From Acidimicrobiaceae bacterium (GTDB lineage: Bacteria > Actinomycetota > Acidimicrobiia > Acidimicrobiales > Aldehydirespiratoraceae): a stretch of DNA of 64,000 nt. The translations under genes and the position numbers were made by a program. The stretch is from contig VXTM01000047.1 of NCBI GenBank assembly GCA_009837445.1, forward strand, positions 72,437 through 136,436, read 5' to 3'. Shown here one piece after another: positions 7,284 to 28,809 of this stretch; positions within the stretch are counted from its first letter, which is position 1, and each line of letters begins with the position of its first letter. The notes beneath the pieces were generated by a model, which saw only the letters and a program-made list of their open reading frames with translations, had not been told where the DNA came from and ran no database searches.

Positions 7284-7296
7284 GGATCCTGAAGGC

Positions 7297-12459: not shown

Positions 12460-12462
12460 GGT

Positions 12463-13371
12463 CTAGGCGGCGGCTCGGAGCTCCTCGGGGCTGCCGGGGA
12501 TGATCCCCAGGCCCGGGTCGCCGGATGCGCCGAAGGCGGGGGGCCGGGGGTTGGAGGTGCCCCACAGATCGGACTGCTCCGGAACGGCCTCCCAGGTGCG
12601 CACAACCCAGTCCGGGGTGTCGACCGCCATCAGCTCGGTGGTGAACTCGCAGACGAAGCCCGCGGGGGAGCGGAAGTAGGCGAAGGCGTTGTCGCCGGGC
12701 CCGTGGCGACCCGGACCCCAGAGGATCTCATGGCCGTGCCGCATGGCCCGACCCGTCGCCCGCATGAAGTCGTCGATGTCGGCGCACTCGTAGGCCACGT
12801 GGTTCAGGCCGGGCACGGGCGTGGCGGCCAGCGCGACCTGATGGTGGTAGCGGCTGGTGGTCATGAACACGAGCCTGTCCTCCAGCCAGTCGGTGACCCG
12901 AAAGCCCAGCGCGGTGCAGTACCAGTCCGCGAGAGCGGCGTTGTCGCTGCTGTTGAACACGACGTGGCTCACGTCGAGCGGCAGGCCCTTCCCGCGTTCA
13001 TGTGGTGGCCGGGTACGGACGGCCGTGCCGGCCGAGATCGACAGCAGGTGGCCCTCAGGATCGAACACCTCGAAGCCGTACCCGCCGTCCACCGTCGGGC
13101 CGGGACGGCCGACCAGATCGGCCTCCAGCCCGACGAGGTGATCGTGCATCTGATCGACCAGCGAGCGGCTGTCGACTCCGAAGGCCACCGCATCGGCCCG
13201 ATCCATCGGGGCTTGTCGAAGCGTGGTGATCGCAGGCTCGATCGATCCGGGCGCCGAGAACCGGACACAACCGTTCTGGCTGTCCTCCGGGACGAGCCCG
13301 AACACGTCACGCAGGAAGCGGGCCTGGCCCTCGATGTCCCGCACTCCGAAACTGACGCTGCGCAACCGCAA
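12463..13371 (-). CDS. Two-module VOC-family extradiol ring-cleavage dioxygenase (BphC/HsaC-like)
   Basis: TTG at 13371 preceded by AAGGAG (6-nt spacer), 23 nt after the beta-subunit stop. The longer ORF to 13653 would overlap the upstream gene. About 302 aa, with HVAYECADIDDF and GPGRHGPGDNAFAYF blocks. Confidence 0.7.
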   Translation of the reverse strand: MRLRSVSFGVRDIEGQARFLRDVFGLVPEDSQNGCVRFSAPGSIEPAITTLRQAPMDRADAVAFGVDSRSLVDQMHDHLVGLEADLVGRPGPTVDGGYGFEVFDPEGHLLSISAGTAVRTRPPHERGKGLPLDVSHVVFNSSDNAALADWYCTALGFRVTDWLEDRLVFMTTSRYHHQVALAATPVPGLNHVAYECADIDDFMRATGRAMRHGHEILWGPGRHGPGDNAFAYFRSPAGFVCEFTTELMAVDTPDWVVRTWEAVPEQSDLWGTSNPRPPAFGASGDPGLGIIPGSPEELRAAA

Positions 13372-13394
13372 GGCAATCTCCTTCGCGTAACCGG

Positions 13395-13946
13395 TCAGAC
13401 GATAGTCCTGATGCGGGGTGCATCCACGACCGCGTCGAGGAGCACGACGAACCGAGACATGATCGAGAACGAGTCGCCCGCCCGGCGGACAATGTCGAAC
13501 CGCTCGCCGGTCATGTCCCCCGACTGGGTGCCGTGACGCACCATCGCGACCCGGACGTTCAGCCTGGCCAGGTAGGTGTCGGAGCGGTCCGTCGAGCGGA
13601 CCCGGAGCGCTGACAGGAACCGGCGCGTCCGGACCGGGGGCCGATCGGCCCACGACACCGCGATGTTGTCGTCGGTCAGCCGTGCCACCCAGTTCTCGTC
13701 GATCGACTCCCGGGTCTCGTCCATGAACAGAGCGCCCGGGTCGTAGCCGAGCTGGGGGTGCTGGTCGGTCACCAGCGGCACGGGGACGAGGTACGTGAAG
13801 TCCTCATCGACGAGGTCGAGCCACTCCTTGAGGCGCCATTCGTCCAGCAGCTCGGCCTCGTAGGCGTAGAAGAGGCCCAGTTCCTGGTGGACCGGCAGCG
13901 GAGCGGGCCCTCCGGTGGTGGTCGGATGGACCCAGCGGGCCTTCAT
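13395..13946 (-). CDS. Ring-hydroxylating dioxygenase beta (small) subunit, set 1
   Basis: ATG at 13946 in an ATGA overlap with the alpha stop. 183 aa. NTF2-like (FYAYEAELLDEWRLKEWLDL). Confidence 0.8.
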   Translation of the reverse strand: MKARWVHPTTTGGPAPLPVHQELGLFYAYEAELLDEWRLKEWLDLVDEDFTYLVPVPLVTDQHPQLGYDPGALFMDETRESIDENWVARLTDDNIAVSWADRPPVRTRRFLSALRVRSTDRSDTYLARLNVRVAMVRHGTQSGDMTGERFDIVRRAGDSFSIMSRFVVLLDAVVDAPRIRTIV

Positions 13947-15280
13947 CGAATGGACGCGGCCGGCTCGGCGACAGCCGTGAGCTCCATGCGGCGGCGCCAC
14001 TCGGTGAGGAAGCCGCGGAGGGTGTGCTCGCTGCGGTCGGCGTCCTGCACGTGGCCGGGCCACTCCAGGCCGTGCGCGTCGGGATGGTGGGTGCCGGCCA
14101 CGTAGTGGTAGGACTGGTCGAGCCCGACCGGCCCGCTGTTGGCCTCGGCCATCCCGAGGAAGTTCTCGTTGTCGTCGAGCTCGAACATCCCGCCGGGGCC
14201 GTTGGTCCTGAGGTAGGCCCGCTGGGAACGCTCCTTCCATGTCTCGGAGGCGTCGGCCGGCACGAGGTGCCACCACCAGATCTCGGTCAAGCCCTCGTCG
14301 ACAGGGACCTTGAGGGTGAGCCGGGTGTAGCGGCACATCGAGCCGGGCCCGTCGGTGGCGGTCTTGAAGTTCTCCAGGAAGGACAGGTTGGGGAACACGC
14401 TGCCGTGGGTGACCGAGGTGCGGGCCATGATGTCGACCTGGCCCGGTTTCAGGTTGCGCTCGATCTCACCCCAGAGCTCCTCCGGGTATCCGAGGAACCC
14501 GGGCGGGTGGGTCTCGATGGGCAGGTGCTGGATCCGGATGGTGTGGCCGTTGCCGCACTGCACGGTGCGTCCGGGGAACTTCGGTCCGATCAGGTCGCCG
14601 TACGGGGCCACGTCCTCGGGGCTGGGGAAGAGCCCGAACCGCAGCGCGGTCTCGTGGGTGATCATGGTGTGGTAGCCGTCGCCGGAGAGGTTCTCGGTCT
14701 CGGCCTTCCAGTTGGCGCGGATGCGGGTCCGCACCGGCGAGCCCATGACCTCGAACCCGTTGTCGAACTTCCCGAACAGCGCGTCGAAGTAGTAGGTCAT
14801 GTGGCCTAGGGCCTCGCTCAGCGACGGACCCTTGAAGTCCCATGTGGCGAAGATCAGCCCATGCAGGACCTCGACCCGGGCTGAGCGGAGGTTGAAGCGC
14901 GACTTGTCGAGGTCGGGGCCGTACACCTCCTTCTCGTAGGTGACGGCCAGGCACTTGCCGTCGAGACCGTAGGCCCAGCCGTGGTAGGAGCATCTGTGGG
15001 CCTTGGTGTTGCCGCGTTCGGGCCGGCAGAGCTTCACGCCCCGGTGCGAGCACGAGTTCAGCATCACGCCGACGGTGCCGTCCCGGCCCCGGTTCACGAT
15101 TACCGGGTCGACGCCGAGGGGCCTGGTCACGTAGTCGCCCGGCTCAGGGATCTCGGAGACGTGCCCTACGAAGAACCATGACGTCTTGAAGATCGAGTCC
15201 AGCTCGCGGCGATGGATCTCGGGGTCGTGGTAGATGCGTCGGCTGACCCGGAACCCGCCATCGGTGTCGATCAGTGCCAT
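13943..15280 (-). CDS. Rieske ring-hydroxylating dioxygenase alpha subunit, set 1
   Basis: 445 aa. Rieske motif CSHRGVKLC...CSYHGW. Catalytic-domain block GDGYHTMITHE. Confidence 0.9.
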   Translation of the reverse strand: MALIDTDGGFRVSRRIYHDPEIHRRELDSIFKTSWFFVGHVSEIPEPGDYVTRPLGVDPVIVNRGRDGTVGVMLNSCSHRGVKLCRPERGNTKAHRCSYHGWAYGLDGKCLAVTYEKEVYGPDLDKSRFNLRSARVEVLHGLIFATWDFKGPSLSEALGHMTYYFDALFGKFDNGFEVMGSPVRTRIRANWKAETENLSGDGYHTMITHETALRFGLFPSPEDVAPYGDLIGPKFPGRTVQCGNGHTIRIQHLPIETHPPGFLGYPEELWGEIERNLKPGQVDIMARTSVTHGSVFPNLSFLENFKTATDGPGSMCRYTRLTLKVPVDEGLTEIWWWHLVPADASETWKERSQRAYLRTNGPGGMFELDDNENFLGMAEANSGPVGLDQSYHYVAGTHHPDAHGLEWPGHVQDADRSEHTLRGFLTEWRRRMELTAVAEPAASIR

Positions 15281-15304
15281 CGCGATGCCCCCTCTCTCAA
15301 GAAG

Positions 15305-16282
15305 CTAGTCCCGCATGATGCGCAGGGTCCCAATCTCGGGCGCGGGAATGCCCATTCCCCGCTCGTGCGCGGCCACCAGCAGCCGGTGGGCCAGGGCGAG
15401 GTCCTGCTCGACGGTGCCGATGGACTTGAAGACCAGCGGGCCCTCGCCGGCCTGCTCGTACGGTGACTCCAGCCAGTCCTTCAACAGCACGGCCCGGTCG
15501 GGGTCGAAGCCGAATCGCTCGGCCGCGTCGATGACATCACCCGGCTCGTGACGGGCGTCGGCACAGTCGAACACCACCTGCGAGGCTTCGGCGAAGACAT
15601 CGCCGACCAGCTCCCGCTGATCGGGCCGGGTCGATCCGATTCCGGCCAGCATCTCTAGATGGGCGACCTGGCAGGCCTCCAGGAACGCCGGGCCGAGAGA
15701 CGATGTGGCGACATACGACTGCTGGGCGCCGGCCAGCGCGGCGTCCACCGAGTCCACCGGGTAGACGGGCACGCCTGCGACGGGGCCGAGAGCCTCGCAG
15801 AACGACTCCCGGTTGGCCCGGGTGGGACTGAACACCGCCACCTCGGCCAGCGTCGACACCGCGGCCACCGCCCGCAGTCCTTCTTTGGCCTCCTCGCCGC
15901 TGCCGATCACTGCCAGCTTCTTGGGCCGGCCGTCGTCGACGTGCTCGAAGGCCAGCGCGGCCGTCGAGGCGGTGCGCAGGCTGGTGATGCGGCGACCGTC
16001 GACGACCCCGATCATGTCGGCGGTGTCCCGGTCGAAGACGCTGACGTGGTAGCGGACCCGCTTGCCGACCCGGTGGAACTCCTTGTAGCCGACGATCCCG
16101 ATCTCACCCAGGATGCCGGCCAGCACCCGCATCCAGGTGTGGCCGTCGCCGATCTGCACCCTTCCGGTCACCGCCTCGGCGCGGGCTGAGACCCGGGCCG
16201 CCTCCAACCCGACCTCCACCGAGGCCAACTCGTCGACGAGGTCGCCGTCGAGGAACAGGGGCGGGTCACCCAGCGCGGTCAC
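15305..16282 (-). CDS. Ornithine cyclodeaminase/mu-crystallin family protein
   Basis: 325 aa. Blocks ITSLRTASTAALA, LAVIGSGEEA (Rossmann) and FKSIGTVEQDLALA. Confidence 0.75.
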   Translation of the reverse strand: MTALGDPPLFLDGDLVDELASVEVGLEAARVSARAEAVTGRVQIGDGHTWMRVLAGILGEIGIVGYKEFHRVGKRVRYHVSVFDRDTADMIGVVDGRRITSLRTASTAALAFEHVDDGRPKKLAVIGSGEEAKEGLRAVAAVSTLAEVAVFSPTRANRESFCEALGPVAGVPVYPVDSVDAALAGAQQSYVATSSLGPAFLEACQVAHLEMLAGIGSTRPDQRELVGDVFAEASQVVFDCADARHEPGDVIDAAERFGFDPDRAVLLKDWLESPYEQAGEGPLVFKSIGTVEQDLALAHRLLVAAHERGMGIPAPEIGTLRIMRD

Positions 16283-17298
16283 TTCGGATTCCTGCCGACC
16301 CAGAACTCCTCGTCGCCGTCGTCGGTGACGTCGAGGCCGGCGTCCACCGCGGCCTTGCGGATCATGCCCATCTGCGCCGCGTTGATGCGGGCCAGCGGCG
16401 CTCGAAGCGGCCCCCCATTGAAGCCGATCAGCCAGCCCTGGTACTTCCAGATGCTCCGGGGCACCATCCCGGTGGAGGCCACGACGGGGCTGGCGGTGGC
16501 GCTGTTGGCCTTGCGGATGGGCGCGTTGCGCCAGTACAGGTCCATGCCGTCGTCCCAGGTGGCGGGATCACTGAGCAGCTTGAGCATCTGTGGAACGCGG
16601 GGTCCGAAGGCCTCGTAGTTCGAGGTGCCCATGTACTTCATGCCGTAGTGCCGGATCCAGATCGGCGCGTTGTACTCCATGGGATCGGTCACGACGACTT
16701 GGTCGCCCAGGAGCCGGAAGACGTCGTCCATGCCTCCCGTGTAGGGCAGGCCGATCTCGTTCTTGATCCCCACCAGCATCGGACAGTCGGCCACCAGCCT
16801 CTCCAGCAGTCCCACCGGAAACGCGGCCGGATGCAGCCGGGCGAAGTTCCACTGGTCGATGGCGAACAGCAGCACGCCAAGCGGCGAGCGGTCGATCATC
16901 GCCTTGCTGGCCTCGTAGAGCTCGTCGAGGGTGCGAGGGTAGAACGTCAGCGGGTAGGACGGCAGCACCAGATCGGCCCCCAGCTCGGCGCCCCATTCGA
17001 TGGTGAGCTGCTGCTGGTCCCAGGTCGGCTGGGATGCTTGGACGACCACGACGAGGTCCCCGGCCGCGTCGATGACGATCTCCAGCAGCCGCCGGTACTC
17101 CTCGAGGGTCGTGCCCCCCTCGCTCACCGCCAGCACCGCGCTCATGCCGAGCTCCCGCTCCATCTCGACGTCGTGGCGGATGGCGGCTTCGTTCAGCGTC
17201 GACAGGTCGCCGGTGAAGGTGGGCAGCACACAGCCGCAGCACCCTCTTAGATTCTCCAGCGCCCACGCCCGCGCCCCGGTAGCGCGGTATTCAGGCAT
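16279..17298 (-). CDS. Dihydrodipicolinate synthase (DapA)-like class I aldolase family protein
   Basis: ATG at 17298 preceded by GGAGGTGG (5-nt spacer). Candidate Schiff-base lysine in LVGIKNE. 4-nt overlap with the downstream gene. Confidence 0.6.
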   Translation of the reverse strand: MPEYRATGARAWALENLRGCCGCVLPTFTGDLSTLNEAAIRHDVEMERELGMSAVLAVSEGGTTLEEYRRLLEIVIDAAGDLVVVVQASQPTWDQQQLTIEWGAELGADLVLPSYPLTFYPRTLDELYEASKAMIDRSPLGVLLFAIDQWNFARLHPAAFPVGLLERLVADCPMLVGIKNEIGLPYTGGMDDVFRLLGDQVVVTDPMEYNAPIWIRHYGMKYMGTSNYEAFGPRVPQMLKLLSDPATWDDGMDLYWRNAPIRKANSATASPVVASTGMVPRSIWKYQGWLIGFNGGPLRAPLARINAAQMGMIRKAAVDAGLDVTDDGDEEFWVGRNPK

Positions 17299-18241
17299 CT
17301 TGACCACCTCCGGTCCGCCCAGCCGCACGAGTCAGGAACAGTCGCTCGGCGTTGCGTCCGAGCATGTCGGCCCGTTGCTCGTCGTTCAAGCCCAGTTCGT
17401 CCACGACGGCCAGGTGGCGCTGCACCGGCCACGGAACCGGCGGGCAGTCGGTGCCGAAGCAGACGTGGTCTGAGCCCACCGTCTCCAAGGCCATCCGCAG
17501 TGGCCGGCTCCCGAAGGTGACCGTGTCGAGGAAGAGCTTCTTGACGTGGCTCGAGGGCGGCTCGGCCAGCTCTACCTCGCCCCACGGTCCCAGGGGGGCG
17601 TAGTTGCGCAGTTCGTGCCCGAAGTCGAGCCGATCGGCGATGGTGGTGATGGCCCCGCCGGCGTGGGCGCAGAGCAGCCGGAGCTGCGGGAACTGCTCGT
17701 AGGTGCCGGTGAGGATGAAGCGGGCCAGCGTGACCGTCATGTCCAGGGGGCGCCCGCACACTTCGCCCATGCGGTAGATGCCCATGAGGTCCTGGCCGAC
17801 GGTTTGACCGCCGGGGTGGACGAACAGGGGCGCGCCGATGCTCGAGACGTAGTCCCAGAACCCGGCCGGGACGCTGTCGAGATAGCGGTTCTGGTCGCTT
17901 GTCGGCAGAGCGAAGCCGGCCAGTCCGAGTTCCTCGGTGGCCCGCCGGGCCTCGGCCAGGTGCTCGGGTCCGCGCCAGGGGACCGCAGTGGCCAGGCCGG
18001 CGAAGGTCCCTGGATGCTGGCGGGCCAGATCTGCGACGAAGTCGTTGTAGGCGCGGACCTGCTCGATGTCGCCGGTGTCGAGGTCGCCGTACCAGATGTG
18101 AGGGTCGGAGACGATCGAGGTGGTGAGCCCGCCCTCCTCCATCCGTTCGAGTTGCCGGGGCACATCGAACAGATCGGGTGGCATGTGACCCCTCGGCTGC
18201 CACTGCGGAGGGAAGAGATGGACGTGACTGTCGACGATCAT
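17291..18241 (-). CDS. Amidohydrolase_2 family protein (ACMSD-like decarboxylase/hydratase)
   Basis: 316 aa. N-terminal MIVDSHVHLFPP metal motif. C-terminal MLGRNAERLFL is typical of the family. Confidence 0.75.
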   Translation of the reverse strand: MIVDSHVHLFPPQWQPRGHMPPDLFDVPRQLERMEEGGLTTSIVSDPHIWYGDLDTGDIEQVRAYNDFVADLARQHPGTFAGLATAVPWRGPEHLAEARRATEELGLAGFALPTSDQNRYLDSVPAGFWDYVSSIGAPLFVHPGGQTVGQDLMGIYRMGEVCGRPLDMTVTLARFILTGTYEQFPQLRLLCAHAGGAITTIADRLDFGHELRNYAPLGPWGEVELAEPPSSHVKKLFLDTVTFGSRPLRMALETVGSDHVCFGTDCPPVPWPVQRHLAVVDELGLNDEQRADMLGRNAERLFLTRAAGRTGGGQDA

Positions 18242-18244
18242 GAG

Positions 18245-20524
18245 CTATTCCTCCCCTGGATCATGCCCGGTCGGGCGGTGCAGGGCGTGCCAGAGGTGGG
18301 CCGAGCTCACGGAGCTGCTGAGCACCTCGGCCCCTGCGCCGACGGCGTCGGCGACGCCGTTGGCGACCGCGCCGAGCGAGCCGACCATCCCGGCCTCGCC
18401 GCCGCCCTTGATGCCGAGCGGGTTGGATCCGCTGCCGTGCTCGATGATGGTGACCTCCACGTCGGGCAGTTCGGCCGCGGTGGGCATCATGTAGTCGGCG
18501 AAGGTCACCGACAGCGGCTGGCCGTGCTCGTCGTACGCGATCTCCTCGAACAGCGCTCCACCGATGCCCTGCGCGGCTGCGCCCGCCAGCTGGCCCCGAA
18601 GGAGTCTCGGGTTGACGGCTCGCCCGACGTCATGGGCCAGCGCGAACCGGTCCACCCGGGCTCTGCCGTCGGCCGGGTTCACCGACACCGAGCACACCGC
18701 CCCGCCGAAGGAGGCGGTCAGCCCCTCCTTTTCGAACCGGCCGCGGGTGGGGCCGATGTCGCCGAGCCCAACCGAACGGTCGCCGGGCGCGGTCGCCGCG
18801 CCGCCGCGGAACTCCACGTCGTCGGGCCCGCATCCGAGGAGCGGCGCGGCCACCGCTCTCATCTCGTCGACAGCCGCCGCGATGGCGTTCCCGGCCAGCA
18901 CTGTGGAGCGGCTGGCGAAGGCCCCGAAGCCCTGCGGCACCTCGGCAGTGTCATGGAACTCGACGGTCACGTCGGTGAGCGGCACGTCGAGAAGTTCGGC
19001 CGCGATCTGAGCCAGCGCAGTCTCGACGCCCTGGCCCAGCGATCCGACACCGGCCCGAACGACGACATTGCCCGCGCCACCGATCACCTCGACCTCTTCG
19101 AATGGTCCGACCGCGGCGAACTCGATATAGGCCGAGATGCCGACGCCGGCATGCTGCCCATCGGCTCGCGCCTGTTGCTGCTCGACCCGCATCCGGTCGT
19201 AGCCAGCCCCGTCGAGCATCTGATCGAAAGCCTGAACGAAGTCGCCGCCCTGGTACATGATCGGCATCACCGCCCCCGAACCGGGCCCCGGCATGAAGCT
19301 GAACGGCATCGACTCGGCCGGGATCAGGTTGCGGCGCCGCAGGTCGGCCGGGTCCATCTGTAGCTCGGCCGCCAGGATGTCGACCATGCGCTCACGGACG
19401 AAAGTGGCCTCGGTCATGCCCGGGCCGCGGTAGGTGCCGACCGGGGTCCGGTTCGTCAGCACCGCGTCGAGATCCATGCTGAACGCCTGCCACTCGTAGG
19501 GACCGGGAAGGTGGACCATGGGGAGCACGACCGGCAGCAGGCCCTGGGTCCTGACGTAGGCGCCGTGGTCGCACCATCCCCGTACCCGGAAACCCAGCAT
19601 CCGGCCGTCGGCGCCGGCCGCCAGCTCGAAGTCGTGCTCCTGTTCCCGGGCATGGTTGGTGGCGACCATGTGCTCCCAGCGGTCCTCGATCCACTGGACG
19701 GGCCTCTCGAGACGCCGGGCCAGCAGCGCGACGAGGATGTCCTCGGGGTAGGGCTCGCCCCGCGTCCCGAACCCGCCCCCCACTTCAACCTCGATGACGC
19801 GGACTTTGGTCAGCTCAAGCCCCAGCACGCGGCTCAGCAGGGCCCGGGTGAAGTGCTTGACCTTGGCGCCGCCCCACACCGTGAGCCCGCCTGATCCGGA
19901 GTCGTAGTCGGCCACCAGCCCGCGGGTCTCCATCGGCGTCGCGGCGAGGCGATGGACACGCAGCCGGCGGCGGACCACCACATCGGCCTGCGCGAACGCC
20001 GCGTCAACGTCTCCGTAACGGTAGGCGAGCCGGCCGATGGTGTTGCTTCCGAAGCTCTCGTGCACCAACGTCCGGGAAGACTCCGCCGACGTGGCTGGAT
20101 CGAGGACCGGCTCCAGCTCCTCGAGATCGACGGAGACGAGTTCGGCGGCGTCCTCGGCCACATAGGGGTCATCGGCCACGACCACCGCGACCGGTTCGCC
20201 GACGTAGCGGACGACATCGGCGGCCAAGGGTGCCTGCAGCACCGCGTTGGCCTCGGGCGACTCCGCGAACGGGAGCCGGATCGGTATCCGGATGTCGTCG
20301 ATGTCGTCGGCGGTGATGGCTGCCACGACGCCGGGGACCCGCAGGGCTTCGGAGGTGTCTACGCCGAGCAGCCGGGCGTGGGCCGACGGGCTCCGCACCA
20401 CCCGGGCGTACACCTGGCCCTCGAGTCGGATGTCGGCCACGTAGGTTCCTTCGCCGGTGAGCAGCTCCCGGTTCTTGCGCCTAGGCGCGGGGCTGCCGAT
20501 GAGCCCGCCGCGGGGCGCGCTCAC
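18245..20524 (-). CDS. Xanthine-dehydrogenase-family molybdopterin-binding large subunit, set 2 (L3)
   Basis: 759 aa. N-terminus RRKNRELLTGEGTYVADI. Loop GTYRGPGMTE. 4-nt overlap with the upstream M gene. Confidence 0.85.
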   Translation of the reverse strand: MSAPRGGLIGSPAPRRKNRELLTGEGTYVADIRLEGQVYARVVRSPSAHARLLGVDTSEALRVPGVVAAITADDIDDIRIPIRLPFAESPEANAVLQAPLAADVVRYVGEPVAVVVADDPYVAEDAAELVSVDLEELEPVLDPATSAESSRTLVHESFGSNTIGRLAYRYGDVDAAFAQADVVVRRRLRVHRLAATPMETRGLVADYDSGSGGLTVWGGAKVKHFTRALLSRVLGLELTKVRVIEVEVGGGFGTRGEPYPEDILVALLARRLERPVQWIEDRWEHMVATNHAREQEHDFELAAGADGRMLGFRVRGWCDHGAYVRTQGLLPVVLPMVHLPGPYEWQAFSMDLDAVLTNRTPVGTYRGPGMTEATFVRERMVDILAAELQMDPADLRRRNLIPAESMPFSFMPGPGSGAVMPIMYQGGDFVQAFDQMLDGAGYDRMRVEQQQARADGQHAGVGISAYIEFAAVGPFEEVEVIGGAGNVVVRAGVGSLGQGVETALAQIAAELLDVPLTDVTVEFHDTAEVPQGFGAFASRSTVLAGNAIAAAVDEMRAVAAPLLGCGPDDVEFRGGAATAPGDRSVGLGDIGPTRGRFEKEGLTASFGGAVCSVSVNPADGRARVDRFALAHDVGRAVNPRLLRGQLAGAAAQGIGGALFEEIAYDEHGQPLSVTFADYMMPTAAELPDVEVTIIEHGSGSNPLGIKGGGEAGMVGSLGAVANGVADAVGAGAEVLSSSVSSAHLWHALHRPTGHDPGEE

Positions 20525-21878: not shown

Positions 21879-21885
21879 CAGGCGG

Positions 21886-22893: not shown

Positions 22894-22921
22894 CGGCGTT
22901 CCCCCTTGTGCGCCTTCCAGG

Positions 22922-24028
22922 TCAGGGCGCCTTGGACATATCGACGATGGCGGCCACCATGCCACCTCCGGCGGGACCCTGCTGGAGAGCCGCCACCGAG
23001 CAGTACACGGCCGGATCCCCGATGGCGGCGGCCGCTACCGCACCCACGGCGCCCTTGGTGTGGTGGGTGTGGTGGATGTCGGAGTCGTTGATCGAGACGA
23101 GCCGGCGGCCCCGCAGCCGTCCCGAGGGGTCGGTCTCGCACTTGATGAAGCAGTTCACGACGGCATCGCCCAGGTCGCTGGGGTGGGGCCGGTCGGGCAG
23201 GTCGAGGCCGGCCGAGCGGATGGCGTCGTAGATCCCGTCGAAGTCGAGGGCGTCGCGCATGACGGAGTGGCCGATGCGGAAGTCGCCGCCAGCTCCGGCC
23301 TTGTTGCCAACGACGACGATCTGGGCGGGATCCTGCTCGACGCCCGACGAGCACGACGCCACCGACGAGTACAGGTCGAGATCGTTGGCGATCTGCTCGG
23401 GGCGGGGCAGGTCGAACTCGCCTACGGCGTACCCGATGCCGAGCGCGGCGGTGGCGTTGGACACCGCCATCGACTCCATCGTGTCGGTCATGACCACATC
23501 CTTGCCCCGGCTGCGGGCGTCCTCGATGCGCTCCCGGGTCAGCAGCGGGGTCTTGGACTGCACGAAATGGACGTCGGCGGGATCGTCGATGCCCGCGTCG
23601 GCCATGGCGACCCGAACCCCCTCGGCCACCTTCTCCACCATCGGCAGGCGGCCGATTTCCTCGGGCAGGATCGCCTCCGACATGGTCACGCCCACCGCCA
23701 GCCGCTTCTCGTCGCCGGGGGCGCCGTTGCCGCCGACCCGGGCGAAGACGTTCATGTGGGGCGCGATCACGCCGTCGGTGCCGCCGGACCACACGATGGG
23801 CATGCGGTCGATCTCAGACGGCGACCGCGTCCCGTGCACGTTGAGGAAGTCGCGGAAGACACGATCAGCCAGGATCCGGGAGAAGTCGTTGACCCCGCCG
23901 TTGCCCTCCGTCTTGCCGATCACGCCGATGATCTCGTCAGCGGTGAACGAGCCATTCTCGATCTCGGCCAGCAGGCCGCTCATGTCCGACACGAACTCGA
24001 AGGGGATCTTGCGTACAACTATGGGCAT
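22922..24028 (-). CDS. Ring-opening amidohydrolase of the AtzD/TrzD cyanuric acid hydrolase / barbiturase family
   Basis: 368 aa. Collinear with Pseudomonas AtzD as I remember it: GKTEGNGGVNDF, WSGGTDGV..PH.NVFAR, LPEEIGR, VHFVQSKTPLLT, ESMAVSN, ASCSSGVE, NCFIKCE, RGRR, DSDIHHT, QQGPAGGG. Confidence 0.85.
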   Translation of the reverse strand: MPIVVRKIPFEFVSDMSGLLAEIENGSFTADEIIGVIGKTEGNGGVNDFSRILADRVFRDFLNVHGTRSPSEIDRMPIVWSGGTDGVIAPHMNVFARVGGNGAPGDEKRLAVGVTMSEAILPEEIGRLPMVEKVAEGVRVAMADAGIDDPADVHFVQSKTPLLTRERIEDARSRGKDVVMTDTMESMAVSNATAALGIGYAVGEFDLPRPEQIANDLDLYSSVASCSSGVEQDPAQIVVVGNKAGAGGDFRIGHSVMRDALDFDGIYDAIRSAGLDLPDRPHPSDLGDAVVNCFIKCETDPSGRLRGRRLVSINDSDIHHTHHTKGAVGAVAAAAIGDPAVYCSVAALQQGPAGGGMVAAIVDMSKAP

Positions 24029-24766
24029 CTAGCGGTCTCCTGTGTTGTGGTCGACTCCGAAGAAGAGCGCCTGCAGCGCCGTGTCCTCCAGCACCTCCTG
24101 GCTCGACACGGGCTGGCCGAGAACACCGGCCTGCATCACATACACCCGGTCACAGTGGGGCAGGCAGACAAGCGGGCTCTCCTCGATCACCCACATGAGG
24201 GTCGTGCCCGAGTCGCGGATCCGCAGGATGTCGTCGATCCGCTCCCGCACGATGGACGGCGCCAGTCCCGTTGTGGGCTCGTCGAGGGCCAGGAAGCGGG
24301 GTCCGGTGATCATGGCGCTGGCCAGGGCCAGCATCTGGCGCTCGCCTCCCGACAGCGTGCTGGCATTCTGTCCCATGCGATCGCGCAGAGCGGGGTACGA
24401 CTCGGCTACCTCGCCGACGCGCCGGCGGATCTCGACGGGACTGGATCCCCGAAGCGCCACCGACAGGTTGTCGCGCACGCTCAGGTCGGGGAAGGTGTTG
24501 TGCTCCTGGGGCACATAGCCCATGCCGAGCTCGGCCAGGCTGTGCGCGGGGTGGCGCCGCAGGTCCGCGCCCTCGAAACTCACCGTCCCACCCGCCGCCG
24601 GCAACAGGCGGAAGATCGTCTTCAGCAGCGTTGACTTGCCGGCACCGTTGGGCCCGACCACGGCGACGATCTCGCCGGCGGTCACCTCGAGGTCGACGCC
24701 GTGCAGCACCGGGAATCCCCCGTAGCCGGCCTCGAGAGCCTCGACGCGAAGGACGGCCTCGCTCAT
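24029..24766 (-). CDS. ABC transporter ATP-binding protein (LivF-like)
   Basis: 245 aa. Walker A GPNGAGKST, signature LSGGERQM, Walker B FLALDEPT. Its stop abuts the ATG of the amidohydrolase gene. Confidence 0.85.
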   Translation of the reverse strand: MSEAVLRVEALEAGYGGFPVLHGVDLEVTAGEIVAVVGPNGAGKSTLLKTIFRLLPAAGGTVSFEGADLRRHPAHSLAELGMGYVPQEHNTFPDLSVRDNLSVALRGSSPVEIRRRVGEVAESYPALRDRMGQNASTLSGGERQMLALASAMITGPRFLALDEPTTGLAPSIVRERIDDILRIRDSGTTLMWVIEESPLVCLPHCDRVYVMQAGVLGQPVSSQEVLEDTALQALFFGVDHNTGDR

Positions 24767-25542
24767 GCCTCCGAGTCCTTTGCGCCGTCCTCGCCGAGGT
24801 ACACCCGCATGACGTCTGGGTTGGCGGCGATCTCGGCGGGCGGCCCCGAGGCCAGCAGCGCGCCCCGATCGAGCACATGCACCTCGTCGGCGATCTGCAT
24901 GAGGAACGAGAGATTGTGGTCGATTATCAGGCTCCCCAGCCCCCGCTCGTCGCAGAGCCGCCGCACGAGCTGCGACAGCCGTCCGATGTTGGCCGGGGCG
25001 ACTGCGGCGGCCGGCTCGTCGAGCAGCAGCATCTTGGGCTCGGCCATCAGCGAGCGAGCGAACTCGAGCAGCTTGCGATCGCCGGCCGACAGCTCGTCGG
25101 TACGGACATCGAGCAGATCGGCCATGCCCAGCTCGGCCGAGATCTCCTCCGCACGGTCCCCGGACGCCCGCTCATGGTCCCGGGCCTTGCGGCTCAGCCC
25201 GAGAGCCCCCAGCGGGGTCTCGGCGAAGTGGGGCGTAGCCGCGGCGAGCAGGCTCTCACGCACCGTCAGGGTCGTGAACCCGACCGGGGTCTGGAACGTC
25301 CTGATGAGCCCGAGCTCGGCCACCCTCCACGGCGGCAGCCCGTCGATGCGTTGATCGCCGAAGCTGATCGACCCCCGATCCGGGGGATCGAAGCCGGTAA
25401 TGGCGTTGAAGAGGGTGGTCTTGCCGGCGCCGTTGGGCCCGATCAGCGCGGTGACCCTGTCCTGGGGCATCACCGCCGACACGTCGTCGACTGCGACCAC
25501 GCCGCCGAAGGTCTTGCGGACCGTGTCGAGCACGAGTTCCAT
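24763..25542 (-). CDS. ABC transporter ATP-binding protein (LivG-like)
   Basis: ATG at 25542 (MELVLDTVRKTFGG) preferred over the ORF start at 26442, which overlaps the permease. Walker A GPNGAGKTT. Block LLLDEPAA. ATGA overlap with the next gene. Confidence 0.85.
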   Translation of the reverse strand: MELVLDTVRKTFGGVVAVDDVSAVMPQDRVTALIGPNGAGKTTLFNAITGFDPPDRGSISFGDQRIDGLPPWRVAELGLIRTFQTPVGFTTLTVRESLLAAATPHFAETPLGALGLSRKARDHERASGDRAEEISAELGMADLLDVRTDELSAGDRKLLEFARSLMAEPKMLLLDEPAAAVAPANIGRLSQLVRRLCDERGLGSLIIDHNLSFLMQIADEVHVLDRGALLASGPPAEIAANPDVMRVYLGEDGAKDSEA

Positions 25543-25550
25543 GCCTGCCC

Positions 25551-26540
25551 CTATCCGCCCGAGCCTTGAGCGGCTCCGGCCGGGCGCGAGTCTCCTGCGG
25601 ACCGTCCGGCCGGGCGGTTGCCGGCCCCGAAGGCGCTCCGCTCCGAGAACAGCCCGTCCGGGCGGAAGCGCAGCACCAGCACCAGAAGCAGGCCCACCAT
25701 GAACGGCTCGATGGCGACCAGGATGTTGATGTGGGAGGGATCGACCTCGATGAGGCCCACCGCCTCGGTGAACACGATCAGGACGAAGGCGCCGGCGAGG
25801 CCGCCGCGGATGCTTCCCAGGCCCCCGATGACCAGCGCGGTCCACACCGTGAAGGTGATGCCCGGCGCGAACAGCTGCGGTGAGACGGCCCGGATGTAGA
25901 ACAGGTACACCGGGGCGGTGGCTCCGATGAGGACTCCGGCCAGCACGAAGGTCTTGATCCTCATCCGGTTGACCCGCTTGCCCAGCGCGAGGGCGACGGC
26001 CTCGTTGTCGCGGGCGGCCCGGAGCGTCCGGCCGAACGGTGAGATCCCGATCTGGCGGGTGACGAGATACATGACGGCCGCGGCCGCCACTGCGATGCCG
26101 AGCAGTACGTAGTTGTAGTCGCGGCCGGTGACGAAGCTGTCGAAGGGGCGGTTGATGTTGGGCACCCCCAGCGTGCCCCGGGTGAGGTCGGCCTGGATGA
26201 CCACCAACTGGCGGATGATCTCGGCGAAGGCCAGCGTGGTGATCAGGAAGTACTCGCGCCTTAATCGGAGCGCGGGCGCGCCGATGGCGAACGCCACCAG
26301 ACCGGTGAACAGGGCCGACAGCGGCCAGGCCACCCACATAGACAATCCGGGCGCGAACCGCATGCCGAGATCCGGGTCGGCGGTGAGAATCACGTAGCAG
26401 TAGCTGCCGGCGGCCAGTAGTCCGGCGATGCCGAGATCCCACATGCCGCCCCAGCCGGACTCGACGTTGAGCGCCATGGCCAGGCTGGCGTAGATCGCCG
26501 CCAGCGTCAGCACGCCCACCCAGAAGATGGGATTGGTCAT
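25551..26540 (-). CDS. Branched-chain-amino-acid-type ABC permease (LivM-like)
   Basis: 329-aa polytopic membrane ORF. Lies 8 nt upstream of the LivG-like gene. Confidence 0.8.
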   Translation of the reverse strand: MTNPIFWVGVLTLAAIYASLAMALNVESGWGGMWDLGIAGLLAAGSYCYVILTADPDLGMRFAPGLSMWVAWPLSALFTGLVAFAIGAPALRLRREYFLITTLAFAEIIRQLVVIQADLTRGTLGVPNINRPFDSFVTGRDYNYVLLGIAVAAAAVMYLVTRQIGISPFGRTLRAARDNEAVALALGKRVNRMRIKTFVLAGVLIGATAPVYLFYIRAVSPQLFAPGITFTVWTALVIGGLGSIRGGLAGAFVLIVFTEAVGLIEVDPSHINILVAIEPFMVGLLLVLVLRFRPDGLFSERSAFGAGNRPAGRSAGDSRPAGAAQGSGG

Positions 26541-26574
26541 GGCGTCGCCGCCTTCGGGGTGTCGGCGGAGGAAG

Positions 26575-27444
26575 TCATGCCACCACCGCGTCCTTGCGAC
26601 GCTGGACGGAGAGGATCCCCTCGGGCCTCAGTATCAGAACCGCGACCAGCACCCCGAAGGCCACCACCGGCCGGTAGGCGGTGGGGATGAACAGCGCGGA
26701 GACGTCCATCATGATCCCCAGCAGCAGCCCGGCCAGGATCACACCGGTGATGCTGCGCAGGCCGCCCAGCACTGCGGCGGCCAGCACGATCAGGATGTTG
26801 TGCCAGCCGATCTCGGTGTTGACCGCACCGAGCACGCCGAGCATCACGCCGGCCATGGCTCCGAAGGCCGAGCTGATGAACCAGATCGTGTTGGACACGG
26901 TGCGCACCGGCACGCCCCTGACCCGGGCTAGGTCGTCGTTGCTGGCCACGGCCCGGATGGCTCGCCCCAGTCCGGTGGAGTTGAGGAAGATCTGGAGCGC
27001 GGCGATGCTGCCGAACGCCAGCCCGATGATCACCAGCTCGTTGGTGGCGATGCCGATGCCCGCGAAGCGGTGCAGTCCGCCTGACACGTCGGGGTAGAAG
27101 CGGGCCTGGGTTCCGAACAGTGCCAGGATGGCGGCGTACATCATCAGCGCCAGCCCGATCGAGGTGAACAGCAGCACGGTGCCGCCCTGGTGGCGCACCG
27201 GCTGGAAGAAGACGGCGGACAGGACAACCCCCAGGGCGCCGAGCCCGACCACGGTGATGGCGCCGGCCAGGAAGATGTTCATGCCGTAGGTGTCCACCAG
27301 CACCACGCCGACGAAGGCGCCCAGCGCCATCATCTGGGCGTGGGCGATGTTGAGGAAGTTCTCGGTCTGTCGCACCAGCGCGAATCCGAGGGTCGCCACG
27401 GCCAGGATGCTGCCGGTGACGATCCCGAAGACGACGTTCTGCAC
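26575..27444 (-). CDS. Branched-chain-amino-acid-type ABC permease (LivH-like)
   Basis: 289-aa polytopic membrane ORF (MQNVVFGIVTGSILAVATLGFALV). Confidence 0.8.
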   Translation of the reverse strand: MQNVVFGIVTGSILAVATLGFALVRQTENFLNIAHAQMMALGAFVGVVLVDTYGMNIFLAGAITVVGLGALGVVLSAVFFQPVRHQGGTVLLFTSIGLALMMYAAILALFGTQARFYPDVSGGLHRFAGIGIATNELVIIGLAFGSIAALQIFLNSTGLGRAIRAVASNDDLARVRGVPVRTVSNTIWFISSAFGAMAGVMLGVLGAVNTEIGWHNILIVLAAAVLGGLRSITGVILAGLLLGIMMDVSALFIPTAYRPVVAFGVLVAVLILRPEGILSVQRRKDAVVA

Positions 27445-27462
27445 GGCGGACTCCCCGGGTCA

Positions 27463-27507
27463 GACCCCGACGGCCGACCCGGTGTGCCCGGGCCGGCCGT
27501 CGGGGTC
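27463..27507 (-). promoter_or_regulatory. Intercistronic GC-rich stem-loop between binding-protein and permease genes
   Basis: Perfect 14-bp inverted repeat GACCCCGACGGCCG (27463..27476) / CGGCCGTCGGGGTC (27494..27507). It encloses an inner 5-bp stem (CCCGG 27478..27482 / CCGGG 27488..27492). No U-tract follows on the minus strand. Confidence 0.6.
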
Positions 27508-27522
27508 AGGCTCGTGTTCGGA

Positions 27523-28770
27523 TTAGGACGGCTTGACCAGCGTCGGGTCGAGCTCGATGTTCTCCCGGACGGCCCAGTCCCCGTCCTGCACGTGGATCAC
27601 CGCCATCACTGGCGACAGCAGGTTGCCCACGCTGTTCAGGTTCATGTTGGAGGTGGTGCCGTGATAGTCGATGTCGTTGCCGGCCTCGAGCTCGGCCAGA
27701 CCCTGGGCGTAGCTGAATACCTCCACGCCGGGCGGGTTGGCGATCTCCGGGATGGCTGCGGCCACGGCAGCGCCGTCGGTCGTGCCGGCCTTCGCGGTGG
27801 CCAGCCCCAGGATGATGTACTGGTCGTACTGCCAGGCGTCGTAGAACGCGATCTCGGGCGGGTCGCCGATCTTGGCCTCGAACCGGGGCACGTAGGCGTC
27901 CCAGGCCGGGTTGTTCTCGGTGTCGTAGGCGGTGGCGCCGACGATGGCTGAGGCGCCCTCCACGCCGCTGATGATCTCGGCGATCTCGGGGCTGAGGAGG
28001 TCAGTCGTCAGGATCAGGGGAATGTCGGAGTAGCCGCGGCGCTGCCACTCATTGAGGAGCGGTACGCCCGTCTCGAAACCGGCCGCGATGTAGACGGCGT
28101 CAGGGCCCGACTCGAAGGCCTGGGCGACCTGAGCCGCGTAGGTGGTCTCCCCGGCGTTGAAGCGGACATCCGCGGTGACGGAGCCGCCCATCTGCTCGGT
28201 GAAGACGGCCTTGAAGACATTGGCGGGGCTCTCAGTGCCCTCGCTCAACTCGACCAGCATGGCCACGTTGCGGTAGCCCTCGTCGCGGGCCACCTGGGCG
28301 CCGACGATGCCGTTGTCGGTGTCGGAGGGGATGATCCGGAACACCATGTCGCCGCCGGTGTTGTCGAGTTCGGTGGTGCCGCAGGTGCTGCAGATCGTCG
28401 GGATCTGAAGCTCGTGCACCGTGTCGAAGATGGCGATCATCCCGTCGGACTCGATCCCGCCCAACGCGTGGATCCCGTCGACCTCGGTCAGCTCGGCGAA
28501 GCCCGACACCGCGCCCTCAGGCGTCGATCCGTTGTCCTCGACGACCAGCTCGACACTACGGCCGAGCACTCCGCCGCCCGCATTGAGCTCCTCGACGGCC
28601 ACTTCCGCCGCGGCCAAAGCCCAGTGGCCCCAGGGTCCGTAGTCCCCGGACTGCCCGTTGAGGAAGCCGTACTTGACGGGACCCTCCTCCGCAGCATCAC
28701 CGCTATCACCGCTGCAAGCTGCGGCGGCCACGAGGCCAACCGCAAGCAGCGCCACGAGTACGCGCTTCAC
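27523..28770 (-). CDS. ABC transporter substrate-binding lipoprotein (Liv/Peripla_BP_6 type)
   Basis: GTG at 28770 preceded by GGAAGGAG (7-nt spacer). Lipoprotein signal VKRVLVALLAVGLVAAAAC-SGD. About 415 aa. Confidence 0.8.
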   Translation of the reverse strand: MKRVLVALLAVGLVAAAACSGDSGDAAEEGPVKYGFLNGQSGDYGPWGHWALAAAEVAVEELNAGGGVLGRSVELVVEDNGSTPEGAVSGFAELTEVDGIHALGGIESDGMIAIFDTVHELQIPTICSTCGTTELDNTGGDMVFRIIPSDTDNGIVGAQVARDEGYRNVAMLVELSEGTESPANVFKAVFTEQMGGSVTADVRFNAGETTYAAQVAQAFESGPDAVYIAAGFETGVPLLNEWQRRGYSDIPLILTTDLLSPEIAEIISGVEGASAIVGATAYDTENNPAWDAYVPRFEAKIGDPPEIAFYDAWQYDQYIILGLATAKAGTTDGAAVAAAIPEIANPPGVEVFSYAQGLAELEAGNDIDYHGTTSNMNLNSVGNLLSPVMAVIHVQDGDWAVRENIELDPTLVKPS

Positions 28771-28790
28771 TGTTTTTCTCCTTCCGGATA

Positions 28791-28809
28791 CTGGGTCGAG
28801 ACGACCCAG
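28791..28809. promoter_or_regulatory. Perfect 8-bp-arm palindrome in the leader of the 16-gene unit
   Basis: CTGGGTCG-AGA-CGACCCAG, 21 nt upstream of the binding-protein GTG, within the divergent intergenic region. Confidence 0.4.

Follow-up and report, generated by a model that had tools for sequence, protein, structure and literature searches.

The window analysed here is a stretch of 64,000 nt from contig VXTM01000047.1 of an Acidimicrobiaceae bacterium (~70% G+C), and the subject is a run of 16 genes on its minus strand that is predicted to encode an ATP-binding cassette (ABC) importer together with enzymes of N-heterocycle catabolism (Table 1). With moderate confidence, the run is read as two units: module A (genes 1-7), a conserved, self-sufficient unit for uptake and ring opening of a pyrimidine-type ureide, and module B (genes 8-16), an accessory N-aromatic meta-cleavage module that lies between module A and a convergent block of molybdenum (Mo) hydroxylase genes.

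Table 1. Positions in the window of the gene cluster, the convergent block and the associated non-coding features. FAD, flavin adenine dinucleotide; ORF, open reading frame.
Feature	Position	Strand	Basis
Gene cluster, 16 genes	12463-28770	minus	
Module A, genes 1-7	21886-28770	minus	
Module B, genes 8-16	12463-21878	minus	
Gene 1, substrate-binding lipoprotein, HAAT (Liv/Urt-type) ABC importer	27523-28770	minus	Peripla_BP_6, 1.5e-43
Gene 2, ABC permease, LivH/UrtB-like	26575-27444	minus	BPD_transp_2, 2.2e-28
Gene 3, ABC permease, LivM/UrtC-like	25551-26540	minus	BPD_transp_2, 1.9e-38
Gene 4, ABC ATPase, LivG/UrtD-like	24763-25542	minus	ABC_tran + BCA_ABC_TP_C
Gene 5, ABC ATPase, LivF/UrtE-like	24029-24766	minus	ABC_tran, 1.9e-33
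Gene 6, ring-opening amidohydrolase (Toblerone fold)	22922-24028	minus	Amido_AtzD_TrzD, 437 bits
Gene 7, alpha-only Rieske non-haem-iron oxygenase	21886-22893	minus	Rieske + VanA_C
Gene 8, Mo-hydroxylase small [2Fe-2S] subunit (S), first gene of module B	21381-21878	minus	Fer2 + Fer2_2
Gene 9, Mo-hydroxylase FAD subunit (M)	20521-21384	minus	FAD_binding_5 + CO_deh_flav_C
Gene 10, Mo-hydroxylase large subunit (L)	18245-20524	minus	Ald_Xan_dh_C + MoCoBD_1/2
Gene 11, Amidohydro_2 enzyme, ACMSD/LigW/IDCase group	17291-18241	minus	Amidohydro_2, 1e-26
Gene 12, putative divergent Schiff-base enzyme of the NAL/DHDPS superfamily	16279-17298	minus	AlphaFold + Foldseek
Gene 13, OCD/mu-crystallin-family NAD(P)-dependent imine reductase or cyclodeaminase	15305-16282	minus	OCD_Mu_crystall, 6.7e-16
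Gene 14, ring-hydroxylating dioxygenase alpha subunit	13943-15280	minus	Rieske + Ring_hydroxyl_A
Gene 15, ring-hydroxylating dioxygenase beta subunit	13395-13946	minus	Ring_hydroxyl_B, 4.8e-23
Gene 16, two-domain extradiol (type I, VOC-fold) dioxygenase	12463-13371	minus	Glyoxalase x2
Candidate promoter/operator region upstream of the binding-protein gene	28771-28882	minus	function inferred
Motif CTGTCAGACAAT, upstream of gene 1	28871-28882		
Motif GTGCAACGCTA, upstream of gene 1	28828-28838		
G+C hairpin, perfect 20 bp, in the 78-nt gap between the binding-protein and permease genes	27459-27512	minus	
Convergent block	4872-12459	plus (RidA minus)	Pfam
Ferredoxin-like ORF, 62 aa	4872-5060	plus	position and length only, by analogy with locus L091
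Cupin 1	5070-5456	plus	
Cupin 2	about 5459-5833	plus	start estimated
RidA gene	5868-6260	minus	
Convergent Mo-hydroxylase FAD subunit	6423-7283	plus	
Convergent large subunit Lc1	about 7297-9657	plus	start estimated
Convergent small subunit	9654-10133	plus	
Convergent large subunit Lc2	about 10168-12459	plus	start estimated

Layout of the cluster

Gene starts and stops were checked against the ORF listing, the ribosome-binding-site context and independent gene calls on public contigs. The 16 minus-strand genes, the coordinates and all 15 junctions reported in a preliminary description of this DNA were matched exactly on re-measurement. In transcription order, the junctions measure 78, 34, 8, -4, 0, 28, 7, -4, -4, 3, -8, -4, 24, -4 and 23 nt, negative values being overlaps; the five 4-nt overlaps lie at 24763-24766, 21381-21384, 20521-20524, 16279-16282 and 13943-13946, the 8-nt overlap at 17291-17298 and a TAG/ATG abutment at 24028/24029. 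Contigs with the identical gene-6 protein, called independently, carry the same 16 genes with the same lengths. Identical copies of the gene-6 protein are present in 34 blocks of the public assembly collection, and the gene order is unchanged, up to the contig ends, in all 10 listed places with an identical gene 6, each from a different sample or assembly. These contigs are one population, and hence provide no independent evidence; sample labels such as 'ENGE20-1' might hint at a marine-sponge habitat. The nearest GTDB species representatives are metagenome-assembled genomes of Acidimicrobiales.

Several features of the window are those expected of an operon. First, all 16 genes are on the same strand; under random orientation, such an arrangement would have a probability of ~3e-5, and co-directional runs of this kind are normal for operons. 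Second, the gaps range from -8 to 78 nt. Third, a consensus scan of positions 11500-30000 detected neither sigma70-like sites nor T-tailed terminator-like sites, which is weak evidence at 70% G+C. Because the junctions are so compacted, the 16 genes are likely co-transcribed in this strain, with read-through of modules A and B as one transcript the most likely outcome. Base composition, examined as a possible sign of foreign origin, is not clearly different between modules A and B (G+C 0.67-0.69 vs 0.67-0.72; G+C at third codon positions 0.86-0.94 throughout).

The 16 proteins were compared by tblastn with 80 GTDB loci centred on gene-6 homologues, and further loci were reached through homologues of genes 6 and 12; seven of the loci (L011, L012, L091, L092, L093, L097 and L098) make up the related Acidimicrobiales set. 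The 101 nt upstream of gene 1 carry two motifs, CTGTCAGACAAT, which contains the palindrome TGTC-A-GACA, and GTGCAACGCTA, and both are kept upstream of the gene-1 orthologue in L011, L091 and L097. These conserved motifs probably represent a promoter/operator, and an AAGGAG ribosome-binding site precedes gene 1 within the candidate region. Each motif occurs once in the whole window. A second motif copy, sought as a test of co-regulation, is found neither inside the cluster nor before the convergent block, and the motif search gave no sign of a second, similarly regulated promoter in the window. An Rfam search of the leader and the intergenic gaps returned no riboswitch or known RNA at E<=1 other than two sub-threshold chance matches.

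The widest gap of the cluster, between genes 1 and 2, contains a strong hairpin (dG -53 kcal/mol, z -4.35). A counterpart stem of 13-20 bp, differing in stem and loop bases, is present at the same junction in L012, L091, L092, L097 and L098. The hairpin is probably an intercistronic mRNA stabiliser or attenuator, as is usual in ABC operons; it likely sets the ratio of binding protein to permease, and transcript levels probably drop after gene 1.

Gene 6 and module A

Cyanuric acid hydrolases (CAH, EC 3.5.2.15) are recognised by arginines at the AtzD positions R194 and R324 and by the motif SGGxExQGPxGGGP (PMC9118981, citing Seffernick 2012), and the barbiturase subgroup lacks the arginine equivalent to R194, numbered Arg188 there (PMC4051656). 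Gene 6 carries Asn191 and Lys325 at the two arginine positions, the same residues as Rhodococcus barbiturase (5hwe), and both are invariant among 16 gene-6 homologues with identities down to 65%. At the position of the CAH motif, residues 344-357, gene 6 reads SVAALQQGPAGGGM and differs at 4 of the 11 specified positions. The barbiturase 5hwe is also the best PDB match (448 bits, compared with 307 bits for the best CAH), and gene 6 is 59.5% identical to barbiturase and 47.5% identical to Moorella CAH. Because of the Asn191/Lys325 pair, the failed CAH motif and the closer identity to barbiturase, gene 6 is by its sequence signature barbiturase-type and not a cyanuric acid hydrolase. Like AtzD and TrzD, which belong to the same Toblerone-fold family, gene 6 retains all three Ser-Lys dyads (K39/S81, K159 with a serine in the SSVASCSSG stretch, and K296/S344); it is the equivalents of R194 and R324 and the CAH motif that set it apart from them.

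Gene 6 is also the only one of the 16 proteins to pass an NCBIfam equivalog cut-off, that of model NF052395 'cyanuric acid amidohydrolase' (421 bits, cut-off 360). This call is judged to be an over-call because both residue tests fail and barbiturase is closer, and the assignment of gene 6 as a CAH was rejected on the residue and motif tests despite the score. A curated equivalog model can thus label a barbiturase-type protein cyanuric acid hydrolase. Database homologues of gene 6 are named inconsistently, as cyanuric acid amidohydrolase, barbiturase or ring-opening amidohydrolase.

Module A can be compared with the oxidative pyrimidine pathway of Rhodococcus erythropolis JCM 3132, which consists of uracil/thymine dehydrogenase, barbiturase (EC 3.5.2.1, the 5hwe protein) and ureidomalonase, and in which the pyrimidine is oxidised and then hydrolysed (PMC3758960). 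Both specificity substitutions of gene 6 are shared with the barbiturase of this pathway, and genes for Mo hydroxylases of the xanthine dehydrogenase (XDH) family beside gene 6 and many of its homologues fit the same logic. The classical uracil dehydrogenase is a Mo-Fe/S-flavoprotein. The reaction that defines barbiturase is hydrolysis of barbiturate to 3-oxo-3-ureidopropanoate, with no turnover of cyanuric acid. The locus differs from the R. erythropolis pathway in that a dedicated Liv/Urt-type importer and an NdmA-like Rieske oxygenase are joined to the barbiturase gene, that a ureidomalonase candidate was not found here, and that the convergent block combines two large subunits with one S and one M subunit. 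Literature searches returned nothing relevant on uracil/thymine dehydrogenase genes, and the barbiturase literature is sparse. Barbiturase and its oxidative pyrimidine route belong to the least-studied nucleobase pathways, and genes for its oxidation or uptake steps were not found described in the literature searched. The combination of a barbiturase-type gene with an ABC importer, an NdmA-like oxygenase and, habitually, a two-large-subunit Mo hydroxylase offers candidates for these genes, and module A points to an unrecognised ureide nutrient of uncultured Acidimicrobiales.

The N-terminal segment of gene 1 ends in an AAAC lipobox, and its PDB relatives are weak Liv-type matches of at most 64 bits that give no ligand clue. 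Gene 4 scores 201 bits against the NCBIfam LivG model, under the cut-off. Gene 7 is syntenic with gene 6 in L011, L091, L092, L097 and L098, and its best PDB matches are NdmA and SxtT (also SxtDIOX), at ~135 bits. It shares the alpha-only Rieske and VanA_C-type architecture with NdmA/NdmB and SxtT/GxtA, its best solved relatives, although the similarity is low and no NdmD-type reductase is found nearby in the window. Gene 7 is thus predicted to be an NdmA/SxtT-like N-demethylase or C-H hydroxylase, and its sequence does not tell demethylation from hydroxylation.

A scan covered 133 nearest-neighbour ORFs of distant barbiturase homologues in L013-L090, which are GTDB genomes mostly of Streptosporangiales and other Actinomycetota. 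The most frequent families there are an amino-acid (carbamate-type) kinase, with 24 genes, and an SseB-domain protein, with 21; five genes encode an FdrA-like CoA-ligase and three an AllG oxamate-carbamoyltransferase. These neighbours hint at a carbamoyl-transfer, ATP-yielding fate of the ureido product rather than simple hydrolysis.

Modularity and the content of module B

Across the related loci, the 16 genes do not behave as one evolutionary unit: module A stands without module B, module B varies internally, and genes 11-13 form a core that is also found where no AtzD homologue is present. First, genes 1-7 are present without genes 8-16 in three of the seven loci of the related set (L011, L091 and L092), and L012 has genes 1-6 only, that is, importer and barbiturase. 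L011 is the closest relative by transporter genes, with transporter proteins 96-100% identical to those of the window, and its genes 1-7 are followed downstream by a glycoside hydrolase, a sugar ABC system and a LacI regulator. In L091 and L092 the Rieske gene is followed directly by the convergent block (L, S, a second L, FAD subunit, two cupins and ferredoxin).

Second, the order of module A followed by module B recurs in L093, L097 and L098, with 72-97% protein identity for common genes and with differences within module B. L097 has genes 1-15 all in view and gaps of up to 369 nt, the widest lying between the OCD-family gene and the alpha subunit of the ring-hydroxylating oxygenase (RHO). 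L098 lacks genes 8 and 9 and has a gap of at least 116 nt before the RHO alpha gene, the range for L098 and L097 being 116-369 nt. L093 also lacks genes 8 and 9, and in it a ~6-kb insert (positions 3804-9672 of that locus) separates genes 11 and 12. The insert contains an N6/N4 DNA methyltransferase, a SmaI-like endonuclease gene and small ORFs, some on the opposite strand, so that genes 12-16 are not readable from the upstream promoter there. Module B of L093 is otherwise 87-94% identical, and at the edge of this locus module A is visible only as its Rieske gene.

Third, more distant loci contain homologues of the middle of module B and no AtzD homologue. L094 has homologues of genes 11-13 (55-64% identical, with the gene 11 homologue at 63%), and L095 and L096 have homologues of genes 12 and 13 (55-59% identical). 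Neighbouring genes in L094-L096 encode a kynurenine-formamidase-type cyclase, an extradiol dioxygenase, XDH subunits, a hydantoinase, an isochorismatase, an FAD monooxygenase and GntR proteins. Conversely, among the 80 GTDB loci, genes 11-16 are never near gene-6 homologues that are at most 74% identical. Lineages with and without module B interleave by protein identity, which implies either more than one gain or loss of module B or its movement by recombination.

The synteny comparison thus gives no support to a 16-gene block conserved across related genomes. The one transcription unit proposed in the preliminary description holds as likely co-transcription in this strain, given the tight junctions, but its gene set and order are not conserved as a block in relatives. 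Modules A and B may function and be inherited separately, and the locus appears to be a mosaic N-heterocycle/ureide catabolic cluster in which very tight gene packing masks a recent mosaic origin.

Gene 10 has KdhL (7dqx, 517 bits) as its best PDB match, followed by CoxL and QorL (374 bits), and is a putative KdhL/QorL-like N-heteroaromatic hydroxylase subunit. Its identity is 75-81% in relatives whose neighbouring genes reach 86-94%. The gene-10 orthologue of L098 (6751-9038 of that locus) is called as two ORFs of 147 and 628 aa, reflecting either a frameshift/pseudogene or a long-read assembly error. Gene 11 matches LigW (70 bits), ACMSD (66 bits) and uracil-5-carboxylate decarboxylase (55 bits) in the PDB and is probably a non-oxidative decarboxylase.

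Pfam agrees with the family assignments of the preliminary description, of which only the DHDPS call for gene 12 falls short by sequence (18.8 bits, with a cut-off of 22.1); there a confident AlphaFold model confirms it instead. This model, built from a 33-sequence alignment, has a pLDDT of 89.6, and Foldseek matches it at TM 0.7-0.84 to NAL, DHDPS, the PhdJ hydratase-aldolase and KDG/keto-deoxy-galactarate dehydratase. In a profile alignment the invariant Lys179 aligns with the Schiff-base lysine of MosA/DHDPS, and an alanine occupies the position of the DHDPS catalytic Tyr133. The model places gene 12 in the NAL/DHDPS superfamily, where it could be an aldolase, hydratase-aldolase, dehydratase or deaminase. 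A strict DHDPS, which would have the Schiff-base lysine plus the catalytic triad Tyr133/Thr44/Tyr107, was rejected on the alanine at the Tyr133 position and the Pfam score under the cut-off. The NAL-like family of gene 12 is small, with 316 homologues detected, and has invariant Cys20 and Cys23 in a GCxGC motif. Together with a W150-N151 pair, this motif may mark a distinct active-site or metal feature.

Gene 13 starts within the last 4 nt of gene 12, and the pair is kept in L093-L098. Its best NCBIfam match is a pyrroline-2-carboxylate (Pyr2C) reductase model at 95 bits, well under the cut-off, and the nearest set consists of Pyr2C, piperideine-2-carboxylate (Pip2C) and ketimine reductases. 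Hydroxyproline catabolism may offer an analogous pairing, of an NAL/DHDPS-superfamily pyrroline-4-hydroxy-2-carboxylate (Pyr4H2C) deaminase with the OCD-family Pyr2C reductase LhpI. Gene 12 shares the TIM-barrel fold and the Schiff-base lysine with this deaminase and with NahE/PhdJ, PhdJ being among its top structural matches; gene 13 resembles LhpI in that its best models are Pyr2C/Pip2C reductases, although at scores far under their cut-offs. The NAL-like, OCD-like and Amidohydro_2 genes form a small uncharacterised set. It turns up repeatedly in N-aromatic catabolic settings and could represent a new handling of imino-acid ring-cleavage products.

The last three genes would carry out ring hydroxylation and cleavage. 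Gene 14, whose translation contains the Rieske motif CSHRG...CSYHGW, matches Rhodococcus naphthalene dioxygenase (2b1x) at 276 bits. Gene 16 starts at a TTG codon preceded by AAGGAG, and its PDB matches are 3b59, of unknown function (191 bits), and homoprotocatechuate and catechol 2,3-dioxygenases (38-43 bits). Both the alpha and the beta subunit of the RHO are present, and the sole ferredoxin candidate is the 62-aa ORF of the convergent block. No dihydrodiol dehydrogenase is present in module B, which suggests a monooxygenase-type or self-re-aromatising RHO reaction.

The convergent block, which lies outside the span covered by the preliminary description, contains two large subunits, Lc1 and Lc2 (37% identical), with one FAD and one [2Fe-2S] subunit. 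Genes for S, M and L subunits of the XDH family adjoin the barbiturase gene both in the cluster and convergently, with three XDH-family large subunits in 17 kb. The block adjoins the barbiturase module in L091, L092, L093 and L098, and also in L013, a different Acidimicrobiia genome where it stands beside a 73%-identical gene-6 homologue. Among the loci in which distant barbiturase homologues have a Mo large subunit beside them, Lc2 is the best match to that subunit in 14 of 14, and gene 10, a 43%-identical paralogue, in none. Because Lc2 is closest in all 14 loci, the Mo hydroxylase that tracks with barbiturase is the convergent one, and gene 10 belongs to the accessory module. In relatives that lack genes 8 and 9, three large subunits would have to make do with the convergent S and M subunits. 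Only 3 nt separate the stop codons of Lc2 and gene 16 (12459-12463); this spacing leaves no room for a terminator, and either transcript would run antisense into the other gene.

Pathway readings and known systems

In the two-module reading, module A would be driven from the conserved promoter region upstream of the binding-protein gene, and its importer would take up a pyrimidine-2,4-dione- or barbiturate-type cyclic ureide, with uracil, thymine or an N-methyl or 5-substituted derivative as candidates. The Rieske enzyme of gene 7 may remove an N-methyl group or add a hydroxyl, and the convergent Mo hydroxylase (M-Lc1-S-Lc2) would, in most genomes, hydroxylate next to a ring nitrogen. Either route could lead to a 2,4,6-trioxo ring, of which gene 6 would hydrolyse one ring amide to give a ureido-malonate-type acid. 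The subsequent release of urea or ammonia and of a malonate-type acid would fall to enzymes encoded elsewhere.

Module B would act on an N-containing aromatic acid. A KdhL-like hydroxylation beside the ring nitrogen would be followed by ACMSD/LigW-like decarboxylation by gene 11, alpha/beta Rieske ring hydroxylation and extradiol cleavage. The amino- or imino-acid cleavage product could be handled by gene 13, through imine reduction or deamination, and by gene 12, through Schiff-base C-C cleavage, with pyruvate probably released at the end. Substrates, reaction order and co-transcription are the conditional parts of this scheme, which is built on the gene structure, the protein families, the barbiturase signature and the modularity observed in relatives. 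N-heterocycle catabolism as a general theme, as put forward in the preliminary description, agrees with the closest solved relatives: barbiturase, NdmA, KdhL/QorL and ACMSD/LigW-type decarboxylases.

Several observations weigh against the two-module reading. The junction between the modules measures only 7 nt and, with no recognisable internal promoter, fits a single operon. In this Acidimicrobiales clade, every module B seen (the window, L093, L097 and L098) follows module A or the last gene of module A, an arrangement compatible with a functional link between the two. L011 has no adjacent Mo hydroxylase, and the link of the barbiturase module to the convergent block is frequent and not universal. 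An identity of 59.5% to one characterised barbiturase leaves the substrate of gene 6 unfixed, and the family has members without an assigned substrate, such as 5hy0. No ureidomalonase candidate, either amidase-signature or other dedicated hydrolase, was found in the 16 genes or the scanned flanks, which is a weak negative, and no urease or other enzyme downstream of the barbiturase product was identified in the window. Likewise, the scanned parts of the window contain no reductase partner for either Rieske oxygenase, and no regulator gene lies in or adjoins the cluster.

The main alternative is a single pathway of all 16 genes, probably joined by the convergent Mo/cupin block, for mineralising one fused or substituted N-heterocycle. 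Candidate substrates are a pyrimidinedione fused to a carbo- or heterocycle (quinazolinedione, lumazine/pteridine or alloxazine/lumichrome type), whose ureide ring would be opened by the barbiturase-type enzyme while the RHO, extradiol dioxygenase, decarboxylase, OCD and NAL-like enzymes dismantle the remainder. This alternative is unlikely, but it has several points in its favour. The junctions are tight throughout, and the A-B order recurs in three further lineages. Lineages whose module B has no S and M subunits of its own must borrow them, implying cross-talk with the convergent block. A precedent is found in the 25-gene lum operon for lumichrome (riboflavin) catabolism in Nocardioides simplex, which directs mixed chemistry at one bi- or tricyclic substrate without a dihydrodiol dehydrogenase (PMC12746152).

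The lum operon encodes a xanthine-oxidase-type hydroxylase, a Rieske alpha/beta dioxygenase, an extradiol dioxygenase, several amidohydrolases that open the pyrimidinedione ring, a cupin hydratase, an aldolase and transport genes; its named components are the P450 LumU, the hydrolases LumH/I/M, the thiamine diphosphate (ThDP) decarboxylase LumK/L, the xanthine oxidase LumJ, the Rieske proteins LumA-D, the extradiol dioxygenase LumE and LumW/Y/X (PMC12746152). Compared at family level, the xanthine oxidase, RHO alpha/beta, extradiol dioxygenase and cupin types are also present at this locus, and neither system has a dihydrodiol dehydrogenase. However, ring C of lumichrome is opened by LumH/I/M and not by an AtzD-family enzyme, and the Lum route lacks the OCD/NAL-like pair of the present locus. 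It also depends on a P450 and a ThDP decarboxylase. The 16 genes encode neither, and the P450 genes of the window lie 11 kb and 18 kb away. The enzyme mix, described previously as unprecedented, was therefore overstated, as the Lum operon already combines most of these enzyme types (PMC12746152). The Lum operon encodes neither an AtzD-family enzyme nor an OCD/DHDPS-like pair. A literature search returned no description of this gene set, and none joining AtzD-family, Rieske and xanthine dehydrogenase terms.

Several observations speak against a single pathway. Module A, or importer and barbiturase alone, occurs without module B in four related lineages, including the closest by transporter genes, and distant genomes carry the core of module B but no AtzD homologue. 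A restriction-modification insertion divides module B in L093. The barbiturase signature points to a monocyclic trioxo-pyrimidine, and the cluster has neither a ThDP decarboxylase nor a P450 of its own. Thus, of the single new pathway suggested earlier, the enzyme families and the likely co-transcription are retained, whereas the independence of module A from module B and of the genes 11-13 core from AtzD argues the other way. In its most specific form, genes 1-16 and the convergent Fd-cupin-cupin-M-L-S-L block would completely degrade a fused pyrimidinedione heterocycle by barbiturase-type ring opening, with a new NAL-like/OCD-like pair acting on a cyclic imino-acid product. This version is decidedly improbable; if true, it would be an AtzD-family-based alternative to the Lum pathway, and it might account for Stadtman's 'path 3' of riboflavin degradation, which forms urea and oxamide.

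A chance juxtaposition of at least three unrelated operons, transcribed separately from internal promoters in coding regions, is improbable too. The separability of the modules in relatives, the strong conserved hairpin after gene 1 and the gaps of 116-369 nt before the RHO alpha gene in L098 and L097 would accord with it, but seven junctions of the window overlap or abut, none exceeds 78 nt, no untranslated promoter space remains, and neither promoter-like nor terminator-like sites were detected.

Two further explanations are very unlikely. Nitrogen scavenging from cyanuric acid (s-triazine) by module A, with gene 6 as a CAH, could draw on the equivalog score, on several database homologues so labelled and on a Urt-like importer suited to small nitrogen-rich amides, but it conflicts with the replacement of both defining arginines (N191, K325), the failed C-terminal motif and the closer match to barbiturase, and biuret hydrolase, AtzE/F/G/H and allophanate hydrolase were not seen in the window, just as the downstream atz/biuret genes of the atzDGEHF operon are not present at this locus. 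A methylxanthine or purine-alkaloid cluster with an NdmA-like N-demethylase and a Cdh/XDH-like Mo hydroxylase hardly fits either: NdmA and NdmB are the best solved relatives of gene 7 and three XDH-family large subunits lie within 17 kb, but the NdmA similarity is low and SxtT hydroxylases score equally, gene 10 lies closer to KdhL, CoxL and QorL than to xanthine dehydrogenases (517 vs about 125 bits), NdmD-type reductase, uricase, HIU hydrolase and allantoinase were not found, and purine routes do not use a barbiturase-type enzyme.

Parts of module B can also be compared with pyridine pathways. At family level, genes 8-11 (S-M-L and Amidohydro_2) resemble the PicA and PicC logic of the picolinate (pic) cluster, as outlined in the summary in bioRxiv 10.1101/530550, and the best solved relative of gene 10 is KdhL of the nicotine (kdh/ndh) system. 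However, a 2,5-dihydroxypyridine dioxygenase (NicX/PicD-type), N-formylmaleamate deformylase, maleamate amidase and maleate isomerase are not among the 16 genes, which contain instead the RHO, the VOC-type extradiol dioxygenase and the OCD-like and NAL-like enzymes.

The flanks of the cluster contain further putative catabolic genes. The region 28872-34538, mostly on the plus strand and divergent from the importer operon, encodes a PNPOx-like protein, an alpha/beta hydrolase, a 132-aa ORF without a Pfam match, a luciferase-like monooxygenase, a second VanA_C-type Rieske oxygenase (322 aa), a 419-aa Rieske protein and a SnoaL/Ring_hydroxyl_B-like protein. In L092 and L097, module A is likewise flanked by the Rieske trio of this region; two of its three genes are in view in L091, and similar Rieske genes are present in L011 and L012. 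Beyond it, a catabolic island at 34574-51419 encodes a haem-oxygenase-like iron enzyme, alpha/beta hydrolases, a 605-aa Amidohydro_1 protein, a VOC protein, an SDR, two P450s (39622-40836 and 46782-48038), an ABC-2 exporter, a NUDIX protein, a family III CoA-transferase and a SnoaL protein. A xanthine/uracil-family permease gene lies at 48448-50175, and housekeeping topoisomerase genes begin at 53837.

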